From: a virus | Reading direction: 5' to 3' (one strand) | Virus record (IMG/VR): IMGVR_UViG_3300046170_000449 | Location: 14,034 to 78,033 of that record | DNA length: 64,000 nucleotides | Program-made: the position numbers and the translations under genes | The notes under the pieces: generated by a model | Seen by the model: the letters and a program-made list of their open reading frames with translations, nothing else | What the model was told of the DNA's origin: nothing | Database searches by the model: none | Shown here: positions 1 through 54,014 of the stretch, one piece after another | Layout: each line of letters starts with the position of its first letter | Position numbering within the stretch: the stretch's first letter is position 1

Positions 1-1
1 A

Positions 2-340
2 AGTTGGGATAAATGGGTAAACAATAACAAAGAACACTATCAAAAAGTTAAAAAACAAGGGCAAAATTTATTGCATCACAACCACAAAAAATACGAACGC
101 AGAGGGATAACAAAAGAGCAATATGACATTGTCTTTGAGGCCCAAAAAGGTTTATGTGCAATTTGCCAAAAGCCTCCCAAGGATAAACAATCTTTAGCCA
201 TGGACCATAATCATCAAACCAATGAGTTTAGAGGTCTATTGTGCAAAGAGTGTAATAGAGCGCTAGGTTTATTTGGTGGTAACATAGATGTATTGACAAA
301 CGCAGTTACTTATCTTAAAGAGCGAGGAAGTTATGGCTGA
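2..340 (+). CDS. Endonuclease VII-type (His-Me finger) free-standing endonuclease, 5'-truncated by the window edge
   Basis: GITKEQY..Q.GLCAIC...LAMDHNH.T.EFRGLLCKECNRALG endo VII motif; frame is open from position 2, so the true start lies upstream of the window. Confidence 0.85.
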   Translation, partial: SWDKWVNNNKEHYQKVKKQGQNLLHHNHKKYERRGITKEQYDIVFEAQKGLCAICQKPPKDKQSLAMDHNHQTNEFRGLLCKECNRALGLFGGNIDVLTNAVTYLKERGSYG

Positions 341-647
341 AGACAAAAGCAAGTACACGAAACCAGACCTGCGTGAGCGCATCAAAAACAAAGTTATGCG
401 TGAAGGCCGTGGGGGTAAACCGGGAGAATGGTCGTAGCCGTAAGGCTAACTAATTATTTCGGCGCGTAAAGCACAGCTCGTAGCTTCCGAGTATAAGAAA
501 GCTGGTGGCGGGTACAAAGGTGGAGAAGGAAAGAAACAAAAATCTTTAAAGAAATGGGCTAAAGAAGATTGGCAAACTAAAGATCAATATGAAAAAGGTA
601 AGAAAGCTGCTACTGCAGCCAAAAAAGCTAAGGAGAAAAAATCATGA
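333..647 (+). CDS. DUF5872-like basic protein (N-terminal half), interrupted by a 27-nt in-frame coding gap (435-461); probably decoded by ribosomal bypassing
   Basis: MAEDKSKYTKPDLRERIKNKVMREGRGGKPGEWS|ARKAQLVASEYKKAGGGYKG... reads as the conserved GGKPGxWSARKAQL motif once TAG CCG TAA GGC TAA CTA ATT ATT TCG is skipped; absent from the ORF track. Confidence 0.8.
432..461 (+). other. Putative translational bypass (ribosome hop) element
   Basis: Take-off TCG (432-434), stop TAG, hairpin TAGCC-GTAA-GGCTA (435-448), ATTATT, landing TCG (459-461). Confidence 0.75.
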
Positions 648-978: not shown

Positions 979-1667
979 TGGGCTTAGCAGAAAAGTTTCT
1001 ACCAGCATTTAAACGTGAAGGTACTGCCTTTGTGCCTACCGAAGAAATGAATAATGTAATAAATTTAATGCAAAGTAAAACAAATAATCCTATTAAGATT
1101 CAACCTGCACCATCTGTTTTAACTGGTATAGATGGAAGGGGAATGTGGGGATCAGGAGGAGGAGTAAATATTGGCGGTGTTGGAGGCACAACTTATGTTG
1201 ATCCTGTTGGTGGCGACGTAACAGTTGCTGCACATGAAGCAGCTCATCAAGCTTTTCCAAGTAGTTTAGCGACTAATCCATATGCTGATCAGAAACGTCT
1301 GGAATTATTTACAACCATGACTCCAGAAATGGTTGACTCTGGAGCAGCAATGCGAGCTGGCTATGAAAATTTAGGCAAACGTTCTCTTATAGAAGAAGCT
1401 AATGCACAAGGTGTTGCTTATGAAGCAATGACACAAGCTGGTTACGAACCTAATAAACTTGGGTGGGCAACCATGCTTAGTTACCCTGCAGAATATAGGT
1501 TTGGTGGGCGTTACGATAATGCTGCACCAGCTTACAAACAGGTATTTAATAAACCTGGCTTAGCTACTTTGATGCCAGGAGAAGCGCGGGAACTAGATCA
1601 AATGCTAGGTTCTTTTGGTCCAGCAATAGAAAGACAATTTGGCTATGGCCGGAGCATGCTTAGATAA
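978..1667 (+). CDS. Hypothetical virion-associated protein with HExxH (zincin-like) motif
   Basis: AAHEAAHQ plus downstream IEEANA. Confidence 0.55.
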   Translation: MGLAEKFLPAFKREGTAFVPTEEMNNVINLMQSKTNNPIKIQPAPSVLTGIDGRGMWGSGGGVNIGGVGGTTYVDPVGGDVTVAAHEAAHQAFPSSLATNPYADQKRLELFTTMTPEMVDSGAAMRAGYENLGKRSLIEEANAQGVAYEAMTQAGYEPNKLGWATMLSYPAEYRFGGRYDNAAPAYKQVFNKPGLATLMPGEARELDQMLGSFGPAIERQFGYGRSMLR

Positions 1668-1876
1668 TGGCAGACAAAGCAATCCAATCTGACGGTACGA
1701 CCAAACGTTACCTTCCTAAAAAAGCCTGGGCATCTCTTTCTAAAAAAGAAAGGGAAGATACTGATCGTAAAAAACGAGAAGGTTCCCGTAAAGGCAAACA
1801 ATTTGTCAAGAATACTGAGAAAGCAAAAAAGGCTGGTAAAGCTGCTAGAATGTATAAATCAAAATCTGGGAAATAA
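1667..1876 (+). CDS. DUF5872-like basic protein (C-terminal half)
   Basis: DGTTKRYLPKKAWASLS..ER..TDRKKREGSRKGKQFV.NT motif. Confidence 0.7.
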   Translation: MADKAIQSDGTTKRYLPKKAWASLSKKEREDTDRKKREGSRKGKQFVKNTEKAKKAGKAARMYKSKSGK

Positions 1877-4230
1877 TGTCTGAAGTAACTGGCCGTATTA
1901 AAGAGATTATTGACTCCTACATCGAGCGCGATGGTGGACAGTATGTAGATACGGGTATTGTTGCCAGTCATATTGCACAGATGAAACTCTTTGGTATTCG
2001 CCAAGGTGTTGAGTTTTTTCCTGCACAAGATAACTTCGGTAATCAACGAAAGGACTTTATTAGTAAAGTAGTTAAATACAATAAGTTAGATACAAGACTT
2101 GACTCGATCTGGGATTATTTTCTCTGCGATGGAAAAGGGATTTTCTACATTAGACCTACTCAAAATAATTATCGTCTCTATTATTTCCGTAGTCATGAGT
2201 ATCGTTCTTATTACAACGTAGACGGTGAGCTAGAAGAAGTCGTAATCATCTATAGCTATAAGGTTAAGACTGGTAAGGGCAACATGTACCAGGATATAGG
2301 TATTGGTGGTATGGATTCTTTACAGGGTGCTACCCCTGGAGATACCCCTGGACAGAAACGTTATATCCGTTTATCTATTAAAGCTAATACAATTGAAGAG
2401 ACTCATTCAGTAGGCGAGATGTCTTTTGATAATGTCAATGCAGTATTACCAGGAAAGACAAAAAAGTTTCCTAATCAATTACGCTTTATTCCCTGCGTTG
2501 AGATCTTCAACAATTCCAAGGGATTCACCATGGATGGCAGTGGTGAATTTGATCAGCTGGCAAATCATATTGTTGCTCATGATGATCTTGTACGCAACAT
2601 GAAAAAGAACTTACAGTTCTTTGGTAATCCTACGTTGCTGTCGTCTAGACCTAAGACAGATTTAATGGAGCCAGGAAATTCAGACTCTGGTCCACAGCGT
2701 CCTTCTATTGCAGCGAACTCTGGTTTTACCAGTATGGCACCGTTATCACGGTCCACATTTAAACAAGATCCAATCACACGGGGACTTGATGGTCAGATGC
2801 GTGTACCACGGGTCATTGCAAATCTTGAGCCTAATGATCGAGTTGGTTACATTGTTCCTGATGCAATCTCTGGTGATCAGAATGCTTTTGTACGTCAGTT
2901 TAGAGAAGAAATTCTAACTTCTTTAGGTGGTGTTGATGAGCTATCAATTTCTGCTGGTGTGACTGCAACTGAGTATAAATCACTATTCGGACGTGTTGCT
3001 GCAACAAGCAAGAAAAAAGCTAATTCTATTTACACGCATGGTATCTGTCGTTGTTTAGAACTAATTATTTATCAAGAAGAACAGCTATTTAAAGACACCT
3101 TAGCTGCAGCTGCAAAATTCGAGAAACCTGTAGCTCCTTCTGAGAATGCTGGACCAGAAGAACAGCAAGCTTATGACCAAGCAATGGTTCAATATGAGGC
3201 CATGCTTAAAAAGCTTTTAATGGCTTGCGTGGAAGCAAAGATGATTCCTCCTGGTGTTAAAGGTTTAATCCCAGACGGCGACATCACCATGCAATGGCGT
3301 TGGCTCGGACCTGTTTATGAAGAATCAACGCAAGATATTTTGAACAATTCAATTGTTGTACGTAACCTACAAGAGTTAGGTGTTGATAGCATTGAAGCAC
3401 TGAAATATCTTTTCCCATCAAAAACAGATGAGGAAAGAGCGGAAATGCTTTCGGGCTTCCCGTTCAGGATGGTAAACGAACTACAAGGAGCCTATTCAGC
3501 TTTTTCTCGTTTGGTAGGGGGCATGATGCAGACCCCTCACCCTCAGGCCCCAGATCTGCCCATGGCGGCAGACCCAAGGTTAGACCTAACACCTTATCTG
3601 TATCGAACCCTAGAAGCGTTACAAAAGGAGATGAGTTATGCAGGACGCTACCGTCCAATCGATCCCACAGACGAGCCCCCAGTCAGTGGCACCAAGCAAT
3701 TACGTGGCGGCAGCCCCGCAAGCTCCGGTGGCACCAGTGGCCCAAGCTCCAGTGGGGACGTACTTCCCCCAGGCGGTGCCCCAGGCGGCACCACAGGGAA
3801 CTACCAGTTACCAATCAAACCCGTCAGTATCCGTCCCCCAATCCCAGGACTCGACGGCACCCCAGGGGAATCCATGGGAATCGGCGTTCAACAAGGTGGT
3901 GAACCTGTTGGGCAGTCCGGCGCAATCCCCGTTCCAGGGAGCACCATCACAGGTCCAGGATCAGGCTCCGATTCAGTATACCCAGGCAAACTGGGGTACT
4001 CAGGCAGCTCCAGCCCAGGCTCCAACTTGGGGACAATCGGCTCCGCAGACCTCGCAAACAAGCCAGACCTCATACAACAACTCTTCCCCAACTTACTCAG
4101 TCAGCTCCTTAGCGGACGTGGCGGAAGTCCTGGACTGGAGTCCAGAGAGTCGGATGGTGGTGGAGAACTACGGGACCGAAGCACCAGCGATTCTAAACCA
4201 GTACGCTCTAAATCTCGAAAACGTCGTTGA
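1876..4230 (+). CDS. Portal protein with long Gly/Pro/Ser-rich C-terminal extension
   Basis: Size, position ahead of scaffold and capsid, FIPCVEIFN..G.GEF motif; tail overlaps the next gene. Confidence 0.7.
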   Translation: MSEVTGRIKEIIDSYIERDGGQYVDTGIVASHIAQMKLFGIRQGVEFFPAQDNFGNQRKDFISKVVKYNKLDTRLDSIWDYFLCDGKGIFYIRPTQNNYRLYYFRSHEYRSYYNVDGELEEVVIIYSYKVKTGKGNMYQDIGIGGMDSLQGATPGDTPGQKRYIRLSIKANTIEETHSVGEMSFDNVNAVLPGKTKKFPNQLRFIPCVEIFNNSKGFTMDGSGEFDQLANHIVAHDDLVRNMKKNLQFFGNPTLLSSRPKTDLMEPGNSDSGPQRPSIAANSGFTSMAPLSRSTFKQDPITRGLDGQMRVPRVIANLEPNDRVGYIVPDAISGDQNAFVRQFREEILTSLGGVDELSISAGVTATEYKSLFGRVAATSKKKANSIYTHGICRCLELIIYQEEQLFKDTLAAAAKFEKPVAPSENAGPEEQQAYDQAMVQYEAMLKKLLMACVEAKMIPPGVKGLIPDGDITMQWRWLGPVYEESTQDILNNSIVVRNLQELGVDSIEALKYLFPSKTDEERAEMLSGFPFRMVNELQGAYSAFSRLVGGMMQTPHPQAPDLPMAADPRLDLTPYLYRTLEALQKEMSYAGRYRPIDPTDEPPVSGTKQLRGGSPASSGGTSGPSSSGDVLPPGGAPGGTTGNYQLPIKPVSIRPPIPGLDGTPGESMGIGVQQGGEPVGQSGAIPVPGSTITGPGSGSDSVYPGKLGYSGSSSPGSNLGTIGSADLANKPDLIQQLFPNLLSQLLSGRGGSPGLESRESDGGGELRDRSTSDSKPVRSKSRKRR

Positions 4231-4633
4231 CGGCGCTCTTACGTGGGGCAATCAAGCTCAACATGCTATGGCACGTTCAGCCGAGTTCATGGTTAATGAG
4301 CACCAAGAGAATCTCGCTTATAACGAGATGCTTACTAATCCTGATATCTTGAGTGACTATACACTTAAGTTCTTTGGTCCTGAAGGTCCATACCCCGTGT
4401 ATGAATCTGAAGCTGAGTTGGCTACCCCTGGTTATCCAACTGCTGCTGTTCCTATGCAGCAAAATAATGTTGCTGGTCTACCTGCTCCCCCACAAGCAAG
4501 TGCGCCACAAGCTCCCCAAGATTTCTGGGGTTCTTTCAAGCAACAAATGGACCAAGATCCTAGCCAGGCCTGGCGTGTCATCAACCAAGCCTCTCCTCAA
4601 GCGATTGCAAATAAGCTTTTCGTAATGGAGTGA
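3638..4633 (+). CDS. Capsid scaffolding/assembly protein
   Basis: Gln/Pro/Ala-rich and acidic; AAAGGAG upstream of the ATG; lies between portal and capsid genes. Confidence 0.6.
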   Translation: MQDATVQSIPQTSPQSVAPSNYVAAAPQAPVAPVAQAPVGTYFPQAVPQAAPQGTTSYQSNPSVSVPQSQDSTAPQGNPWESAFNKVVNLLGSPAQSPFQGAPSQVQDQAPIQYTQANWGTQAAPAQAPTWGQSAPQTSQTSQTSYNNSSPTYSVSSLADVAEVLDWSPESRMVVENYGTEAPAILNQYALNLENVVDGALTWGNQAQHAMARSAEFMVNEHQENLAYNEMLTNPDILSDYTLKFFGPEGPYPVYESEAELATPGYPTAAVPMQQNNVAGLPAPPQASAPQAPQDFWGSFKQQMDQDPSQAWRVINQASPQAIANKLFVME

Positions 4634-53937: not shown

Positions 53938-54014
53938 TGGTAGGAATGGTGGGACTCGAACCCACACTGTAGCGATTTTAAATCGCTTGCCTCTGCCAAT
54001 TGGGCTACACTCCT
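53938..54014 (-). tRNA. tRNA-Leu(UAA) with encoded CCA and short variable loop
   Basis: AGGAGTG acceptor, AGCGA-TTTAAAA-TCGCT anticodon arm, GTGGG-TTCGAGT-CCCAC T arm. Confidence 0.9.

Follow-up and report, generated by a model that had tools for sequence, protein, structure and literature searches.

Efficient programmed bypassing of a coding gap has essentially one natural paradigm in bacteria and phages, gene 60 of phage T4, whose gap and borders (record NC_000866) read GGA-UAGCC-UUCG-GGCUA ... AUUAUU-GGA. In the MobA element, the open reading frame (ORF) of an HNH homing nuclease runs into an N-terminal segment that is encoded by the insert and is homologous to the host target, and the nuclease is often lost while the bypass is kept (bioRxiv 10.1101/2022.08.31.505936). 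According to Manning & Atkins, MobA elements occur nowhere but in Topo2L of Myoviridae, and their bypass cassette "remains unique" (bioRxiv 10.1101/2022.08.31.505936). Here, we analysed a 64,000-nt stretch of viral DNA (the window; bases 14034-78033 of the 78,033-bp IMG/VR virus record IMGVR_UViG_3300046170_000449, which has direct terminal repeats), at the beginning of which an endonuclease VII-type gene overlaps a small gene for a DUF5872-like protein whose reading frame is interrupted by 27 nt. The initial annotation of this DNA had proposed that nuclease and gap form a mobile homing cassette. Comparison with other loci makes it very likely that a mobile cassette sits in the Trp-Ser junction of the GQWSARKAQ motif of this gene, and it would be the second kind of nuclease-plus-bypass element, after the T4-type topoisomerase one, if its gap is bypassed as the sequences suggest.

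Anatomy of the cassette and its insertion site

The DUF5872-like gene (333-647) begins with 34 codons ending in ...GGKPGEWS, and the next codon is TAG. After the gap, the frame resumes with ARKAQL... and continues for 61 codons up to the TGA at 645-647. When 17 uninterrupted homologues of 94-97 amino acids are aligned, they match on either side of exactly nine extra codons, which lie inside the nearly invariant GQW-SARKAQ block, and the phrog_17747 profile also aligns across the gap (E 5.5e-14); the initial annotation was therefore right in placing the gap within the most conserved motif, between WS and ARK. The read-through translation scores 19.1 bits against PF19197 (DUF5872), below the gathering cut-off of 27.5, and uninterrupted homologues that are 70-77% identical to the DUF5872-like protein carry PF19197. 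An intact paralogue of the DUF5872-like gene was not found in the genome.

The limits of the insertion are given by empty-site relatives, which were collected by scanning IMG/VR with a degenerate uninterrupted-site pattern (15 relatives with the same backbone and flanks 81-96% identical). The locus of the source genome, fetched together with the DNA upstream of the window, is called L001, and the other L-numbers denote the other fetched loci. In 15/15 relatives, L001 aligns up to base 1195 and again from base 1959, where the landing codon and the C-terminal coding part follow, these two points being one base apart in the relative, and nothing else of the cassette is present there. These breaks define L001:1196-1958 as a 763-bp insertion between the TGG and TCN codons, composed, in order, of a 36-nt leader with a hairpin, the nuclease gene, a second version of the N-terminal coding segment (N_B) and the gap. 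T4 MobA/gene 60 shows the same arrangement of a free-standing nuclease inside a conserved motif of a host gene, with clean breaks relative to empty sites. On the other hand, the target is different, namely a 95-aa DUF5872-like protein here and Topo2L (the topoisomerase II large subunit) in T4.

The start of the gene is thus present in two versions. The upstream version, the host N-terminal remnant (N_A), reads ...GGKAGQ and then meets a stop exactly at the position of the motif Trp. The DNA identity of N_A and N_B is about 65%, which rules out a recent tandem duplication. The closest uninterrupted relatives are 63-66% identical in DNA to N_B and 79-82% identical to N_A, and, beginning directly behind the landing codon, the C-terminal coding part (CT) has a DNA identity of 95-96% with the best uninterrupted relatives. 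In the closest uninterrupted relative, L125, the values are 79% for N_A, 66% for N_B and 96% for CT. Identities of this type indicate that N_A and CT are host sequence and that N_B is foreign. In addition, the N_B protein is identical in many loci with differing flanks. The ATG overlapped by the nuclease gene, which the initial annotation took as the start of the interrupted gene, is accordingly the start of N_B but not the original start of the host gene, which lies upstream in N_A. It is this duplicated N-terminal segment that makes the logic of the cassette work. In T4 MobA/gene 60, the nuclease ORF likewise overlaps, out of frame, an insert-encoded N-terminal segment, and the insert likewise ends at the landing codon; in contrast to the T4-type host gene, the gene is not split into two working subunits here, and the cassette supplies a complete new N-terminus, with the old one persisting as a remnant and not being deleted.

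The complete nuclease ORF (L001:1232-1840) encodes 202 amino acids and starts 268 nt upstream of the window; inside the window, its frame is open from the first bases to the TGA at 338-340. It matches PF02945 (Endonuclease_7) with E 3e-22 for the partial ORF of the window and 1.7e-21 for the full ORF (76.4 bits against a gathering cut-off of 23.6; profile positions 6-81 of 82), and several PHROG 'endonuclease VII' families match it as well. The N-terminal region is Cys-rich, with four CxxC pairs, and the endonuclease VII domain is C-terminal. A CxxC ... DHxH ... CxxC-N pattern is visible in the ORF, and we take these residues, by analogy with T4 endonuclease VII, to have zinc-binding and catalytic roles. 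The ORF overlaps the gene that starts with the ATG at 333 by 8 nt (ATGGCTGA), and its stop codon is located 95 nt before the gap, so that both the overlap with an endonuclease VII-type gene and the distance of about 95 nt given in the initial annotation hold. Its view that the nuclease belongs to a family other than that of T4 MobA holds as well. MobA carries PF01844 in an N-terminal position, the intact MobA of phage HY01 gave a weak N-terminal HNH match, and BLASTP between the latter and the cassette nuclease gave E 9.2, that is, no similarity; the different Pfam family, the opposite domain order and the absence of BLASTP similarity together place the two nucleases in different families. Both enzymes fall in the wider His-Me finger superfamily. 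T4 endonuclease VII (gp49), the namesake of PF02945, has a catalytic domain of the same family as the cassette nuclease; the latter differs in its extra Cys-rich N-terminal region, its sporadic occurrence and its location within a cassette. Relatives of the nuclease in cultured phages are less than 42% identical and are typical sporadic 'endonuclease VII / HNH' genes. Among the cassette copies, the ratio of nonsynonymous to synonymous divergence (dN/dS) of the nuclease gene is 0.065-0.10, which indicates that the gene has been kept active.

The leader hairpin at the left end of the cassette is conserved (TTTGTGCT / AGCACAAA, with an 11-nt loop). The divergent cassettes of L033, L035 and L051 have other sequences at this position, and these are hairpin-forming too. 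The leader hairpin may control translation or transcription of the nuclease.

Distribution, spread and decay of the cassette

A nuclease search of IMG/VR returned 45 nuclease-related loci, and a search with the exact take-off sequence returned 22 exact-gap loci. After removal of duplicates, 37 distinct gap sequences remained for detailed analysis; gap carriers amount in all to about 40 contigs. When the DUF5872 protein alone was used as the query, the best 80 loci consisted of 6 gapped and 74 uninterrupted ones. The gap is present in 33/33 loci in which a nuclease copy stands beside the DUF5872-like gene and the downstream region is included, and the nuclease is found upstream of none of the 74 uninterrupted loci of the DUF5872-protein sample (Fisher p 2.5e-7). 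The six gapped loci among these best 80 comprise four with a full nuclease, one whose nuclease is cut by the contig end and one with a 19-codon remnant. Nuclease and gap are therefore not distributed independently, in keeping with the co-occurrence proposed in the initial annotation.

The nuclease gene is decaying in a part of the carriers. It is reduced to its last 92, 42, 35, 21 and 19 codons in L038, L039, L045, L056 and L070, respectively, and it is absent in L052 and L062; N_B and the gap are kept in all seven of these loci. T4 MobA/gene 60 is similar in that decay or loss of the nuclease is frequent there and the gap persists. Judged from the collected contigs, the distribution is that of homing nuclease genes, which invade, become fixed and then decay, and the nuclease, being sporadic and decaying, behaves as a homing nuclease and not as a core resolvase.

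Within the lineage with 27-nt gaps, the mean pairwise identity is 94% for the leader, 88.5% for the nuclease, 93% for N_B and 98% for the gap, but 71% and 75% for the host flanks N_A and CT. The synonymous divergence (dS) of the cassette is 0.46-0.68 in this comparison, and that of CT is saturated in 36/45 pairs. Consistently, when 3.7 kb of L001 was compared with most carriers by blastn, little was aligned beyond the cassette and the adjoining gene pieces, save one short conserved downstream stretch. The proposal of a mobile cassette thus finds support in the clean boundaries in empty-site relatives and in the excess of cassette identity over flank identity in the 27-nt group. In the lineages with 24- and 28-nt gaps, cassette and flanks are about equally diverged (dS >1), with a CT dN/dS of 0.08-0.10, which fits older insertions followed by vertical inheritance.

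The source phage is uncultured and aquatic. Among cultured phages, only Synechococcus phage S-EIVl can be recognised as a relative, with 74% identity across a part of the portal region, and S-EIVl relatives with the cassette are known only from metagenomes; MobA elements differ in lineage, being carried by Myoviridae of gamma-proteobacteria. The cassette was present in none of 50,697 GenBank phage records, in which DUF5872 matches were limited to S-EIVl (uninterrupted) and one pelagiphage. A description of the element was not found in the searchable literature (bypassing with phage, cyanophage or DUF5872), whose coverage leaves out most subscription journals.

A second endonuclease VII-like gene is absent from the window. 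On several related contigs, more endonuclease VII-like genes, 34-39% identical to the cassette nuclease, are located 1-3 kb from the cassette (L003:4904-5353; L007:5368-5760 and 386-9, the latter on the minus strand; L036:5065-5499; L064:6369-6785). From these genes, the phage group seems rich in free-standing nucleases. A UAGCC-N4-GGCUA hairpin was found nowhere else in the window or in the fetched loci except in gene 60 of T4 and HY01, the surroundings of the extra nucleases having been searched for the exact hairpin motif only.

The coding gap and its predicted bypass

In the gap of the window, the zero frame is closed three times (TAG, TAA, TAA) and the +1 frame by a TAA, and across the loci every gap variant checked has at least two stops in the zero frame, with a stop in the +1 frame in most. 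Six gap lengths occur, 23, 24, 27, 28, 29 and 33 nt, and the length of the spacer accounts for them. Although the gaps of 23, 28 and 29 nt shift CT to another frame, the landing Ser stays in register directly 5' of the Ala codon. All gap alleles have TCG as the take-off codon, always with TAG behind it; TCG is the motif Ser codon in only 2/73 uninterrupted alleles. Similarly, the landing codon is TCG in 37/39 gap sequences, compared with the same 2/73 (Fisher p 9e-25, for lineages that are not independent). In the two exceptions, L031 and L039, the take-off codon is TCG and the landing codon is TCT, which is the commonest Ser codon of the hosts at this site. The cassette boundary of these two loci may lie before the Ser codon, in which case re-pairing would need a tRNA that reads both TCG and TCT. 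The sole tRNA gene of the window is a tRNA-Leu(UAA) at 53938-54014 on the minus strand, and a phage tRNA-Ser is absent from the window.

The stem of the putative take-off hairpin is identical in 36/37 non-redundant loci, and its loops (GUAA in 23, GUGA in 10, GGGA in 2 and GCAA in 1) all belong to the GNRA type. The Gly-Glu codons GGR GAR precede the Trp codon in 37/37 gap alleles, whereas 72/73 uninterrupted alleles encode Gly-Gln there (GGN CAR), and each of the four Gly codons occurs among them. The resulting purine tract, similar to a Shine-Dalgarno (SD) sequence, perhaps has a role in take-off. The only uninterrupted allele (1/73) with GGG GAA (Gly-Glu) before Trp, about 60 nt before its ARK codons, is that of L092; it could be the footprint of a precise gap loss or a natural variant. 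Within the 27-nt lineage, the pairwise difference of the gap is 0.022, whereas four-fold degenerate sites in the neighbouring cassette genes reach 0.260. This 12-fold slower divergence marks the gap as a constrained element and not as junk.

The features shared with T4 gene 60 are the matched take-off and landing codons, UAG directly after take-off, the same UAGCC/GGCUA stem, a stable tetraloop, and an A/U-rich 3' part that ends in AUUAUU. The gaps differ in length, codon pair and loop, those described here having 23-33 nt, Ser UCG and a GNRA loop, and those of the T4 type mostly having 50 nt, Gly or Asp and mostly UUCG. By eye, the DUF5872 N-terminus (SKYTKP.LRERIK; window 333-400) resembles the nascent-peptide region of T4 gp60 (KKYKLQNNVRRSIK; L150:2990-2853, minus strand), with a Tyr 26-30 residues before take-off and then an R.R.IK-like stretch, and since the resemblance is also present in uninterrupted alleles, it is not specific to bypass. 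A gp60-like N-terminus may have predisposed the gene to host a gap, or the resemblance may be due to chance.

The two coding halves have been preserved. The dN/dS of N_B is 0.013-0.045 at a dS of 0.46-1.0, and that of CT is 0.06-0.10, also in lineages in which CT has co-diverged with the cassette (the 28-nt group). CT is intact, with 47-62 amino acids, in every gap locus checked, and 3 of about 24 N_A remnants are damaged by loss of the start, stops or frameshifts. Judging by these ratios, both coding halves are under strong purifying selection.

Several observations weigh against a bypassed gap with the structure described above. The hairpin is short, and the folding energy of the gap region is not better than that of shuffled sequences (z -0.69 and -1.06). 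Nearly all MobA-type gaps have an SD-like triplet located 5-7 nt before the landing codon; the 27-nt gap lacks it and has the purine tract before take-off instead; its spacer is purely A/U/C-rich, and the nearest RAGG lies in the hairpin loop and 3' arm, 9-19 nt upstream of the landing codon by hand count. Take-off and landing codons never co-vary (always UCG), which leaves the contrast with host codon usage as the sole basis of the matching, and a duplication of the gene through the Ser codon would itself partly yield a matched Ser codon. One 24-nt gap (L022:3704-3727, in IMGVR_UViG_3300011114_000999) is without the UAGCC/GGCUA stem and reads TAGCTATAATATTA, with nuclease, N_B and CT intact; this may represent a variant that does without the hairpin, the onset of decay or a mistake in the assembly. 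In addition, much of the CT conservation could predate the insertion where the cassette arrived recently. Finally, the loci are metagenomic contigs that are not phylogenetically independent, so that the p-values given above overstate the evidence.

The coordinates of the features are collected in Table 1. Between the DUF5872-like gene and a phrog_14910 gene, the window has three ORFs of 71, 40 and 229 amino acids without Pfam or PHROG match (644-1667). In carriers of the L003 type, the DUF5872-like and phrog_14910 genes are adjacent, and the block at 644-1667 therefore varies between backbones. Further downstream, a portal-like ORF of 784 amino acids (1876-4230; phrog_20475) has a long Gly/Ser/Pro-rich tail, which overlaps the next ORF (331 amino acids; 3638-4633) by 593 nt in a different frame.

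Table 1. Features of the cassette and of the interrupted gene (window positions unless L001 is stated)
Feature	Position	Strand	Remarks
Host N-terminal remnant (N_A), first 34 codons	L001:1092-1196		outside the window, 741 nt upstream; short ORF
Leader hairpin	L001:1198-1205 pairing with 1217-1224		outside the window; the nuclease ATG follows after 8 nt
Nuclease, last 112 codons and stop	2..340	+	PF02945 and PHROG matches
Cassette-borne replacement of the first 34 codons (N_B)	333..434	+	ATG overlaps the nuclease stop
SD-like purine tract GGGAGAA (Gly-Glu codons GGR GAR)	422..428	+	3 nt separate its end from the take-off codon
Proposed take-off codon UCG (Ser)	432..434	+	invariant in all gap alleles, always followed by UAG
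Coding gap, 27 nt (UAG stop, hairpin, A/U-rich spacer, landing codon)	435..461	+	missing from all uninterrupted homologues
Putative take-off hairpin UAGCC-GUAA-GGCUA	435..448	+	5-bp stem starting from the stop codon, GNRA tetraloop
A/U-rich spacer	449..458	+	ends AUUAUU before the landing codon; length varies by lineage
Proposed landing codon UCG (Ser)	459..461	+	in register with the Ala codon in every locus
Host-derived C-terminal 61 codons and stop (CT; ARKAQL...)	462..647	+	host identity

Proposed mechanism, alternatives and related systems

The locus could be accounted for by the following mechanism. In a mixed infection, the nuclease would cut uninterrupted alleles at or near the motif-coding DNA, and repair from cassette-bearing genomes would copy the cassette in, with the N-terminus of the recipient being stranded upstream as the 34-codon remnant. 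The full-length protein would then be made from N_B and the host CT by ribosomal bypass of the gap: the peptidyl-tRNA(Ser) would leave UCG with UAG in the A site, with help from the UAGCC-GNRA-GGCUA hairpin and perhaps from the GGRGAR tract upstream, and the ribosome would slide across the A/U-rich spacer and re-pair at the next UCG. At the DNA level, the gap would separate the halves of the presumed nuclease target, so that the invaded genome would not be recut. We consider this account as a whole, with a mobile nuclease cassette, bypass and gap immunity, to be reasonably likely. Bypass from UCG to UCG is the simplest route to the conserved 95-aa product and appears distinctly likely because of the selection on N_B, CT and the gap, the gap lengths that are not multiples of three, the lack of a spare gene copy and the matched UCG codons. 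The immunity role of the gap is plausible, and the indications incline modestly towards it, because both cassette boundaries map to the gap position, where N_B and CT, if joined, would recreate the uninterrupted sequence, and because of the T4 precedent.

This last point bears on the possibility that the cassette is mobile and its gap bypassed, but that the gap is a leftover of the insertion junction or a throttle on the full-length protein, self-protection being due, for example, to the Gln-to-Glu change. In fact, the GGR GAR change stands beside the presumed target in every gap allele and could alone alter recognition. For T4, Manning & Atkins doubt that immunity is the only function, the bypass efficiency being about 50% (bioRxiv 10.1101/2022.08.31.505936). 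The retention of the gap in the seven loci with a decayed or lost nuclease also agrees with another function, but a gap would be expected to persist in any case, since it is rarely deleted precisely. The exact coincidence of the gap with both cassette boundaries speaks against this explanation, and in T4, according to Bonocora et al. 2011 as cited in bioRxiv 10.1101/2022.08.31.505936, nicking is blocked by the bypass insert and not by sequence polymorphisms; an unlikely place is therefore left for it. We judge still less likely, and indeed improbable, that the cassette is mobile and no bypass occurs, so that the gene is broken, N_B yields a 34-aa peptide, and CT is untranslated and intact merely through recent invasion of a dispensable gene. 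The zero-frame stops of every gap variant checked would agree with a broken gene, the cassette of the 27-nt group is younger than its flanks and has left little time for decay of CT, and lesions in so few upstream remnants point to slow decay. However, N_B has its low dN/dS despite a stranded N_A that encodes nearly the same peptide, and CT is intact also in the equally diverged 24- and 28-nt groups, where recent invasion is hard to invoke; the strong nucleotide constraint on the gap, the landing UCG that goes against host usage and the lack of a spare intact copy are likewise at odds with a dead gene.

Termination at the UAG and re-initiation downstream, with the two polypeptides acting as a split protein, is very improbable. 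Split genes resulting from homing nucleases are known, such as MobE in nrdA, and the 28-, 29- and 33-nt lineages have an in-frame AUG five codons past the landing site (ARKAQM...), but the 27-, 24- and 23-nt lineages have Leu there and offer no start codon (ATG, GTG or TTG) in the frame of ARK downstream of the last stop and before ARK. Re-initiation would moreover lose SARKAQ, the most conserved block of the family, whose codons are yet conserved with synonymous variation in gap alleles, and it would leave the matched UCG codons and the conserved hairpin unexplained. Equally little probability is given to the nuclease being an ordinary Holliday-junction resolvase similar to T4 endonuclease VII, linked by synteny only, with the gap being unrelated (a terminator or an RNA-stability hairpin) or removed from the RNA. 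The Pfam family does bear the resolvase name, and a consensus scan flagged the gap hairpin with its T-rich tail as terminator-like. This terminator match is within chance (1 found against 1.3 expected), and the variants with 24 and 28 nt lack the T-rich tail. Unlike a core resolvase, the nuclease is missing from 74/74 uninterrupted relatives and decayed in several carriers, and copies of a duplicated gene segment flank it, the boundaries of the insertion being clean; the resolvase alternative, which the initial annotation had listed as a way of being wrong, is accordingly not favoured. As to removal from the RNA, a search of both strands of L001 against Rfam (introns included) gave no match with E up to 1, and no joined form was seen: the one RNA-library contig that covers the gap, spanning window positions 1-478, keeps it without any indel, although DNA carry-over is possible and the contig therefore demonstrates neither transcription nor its level.

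A mobile cassette with a bypassed gap has partial counterparts in other systems. MobE insertions split nrdA in phage Aeh1 and relatives (described in bioRxiv 10.1101/2022.08.31.505936); there too, a free-standing homing nuclease is located in a conserved gene and insert-encoded terminal extensions rescue function, but no bypass is involved and two separate polypeptides assemble. Similarly, environmental and cyanophage-related metagenomes contain 'fractured genes', in which split inteins accompany a free-standing homing nuclease between gene halves (Dassa et al. 2009, PMC2677866). They share with the present locus a homing nuclease within an essential or conserved gene of aquatic microbes and phages, the product being preserved; the repair is made at the protein level by trans-splicing in that case, whereas the interruption here has 23-33 nt and no intein motifs. 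Further away are elements in which no nuclease gene takes part. The mitochondrial 'byps' of the yeast Magnusiomyces are reportedly bypassed inserts of 27-55 nt, mobile within genomes, which are said to resemble the present gaps in their length and matched codon bounds and to differ from them in occurring by the dozens per genome and under mitochondrial translation.

The likeness of the two phage gaps raises the question of their origin. The bypass gap might be a portable RNA module, taken up repeatedly by unrelated homing nucleases or older than them, in which case the take-off units of the cassette and of T4 gene 60 would be homologous and not convergent; we regard this as a tentative and rather doubtful idea. 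In the shared stem, function dictates the UAG, and either kind of tetraloop is closed best by C-G pairs, so that the stem does not decide between common origin and convergence. If the portable-module reading is true, many nuclease-linked bypass sites would be hidden in phage metagenomes as apparent split genes or pseudogenes. For genes that appear broken near homing nucleases, a gene start present in duplicate, followed by a stop, a hairpin of the GNRA or UUCG type and a matched codon, could serve as an annotation signature.

In general, a second system of this kind would differ from T4 gene 60 in nuclease family, target gene, peptidyl-tRNA (Ser) and a gap about half as long, and its roughly 40 natural variants in six gap lengths would help to separate the general needs of bypass from the particulars of T4. 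If the proposed role of the gap is true, the use of a bypassed gap as a translationally silent immunity insert would turn from a single case into a recurring strategy.

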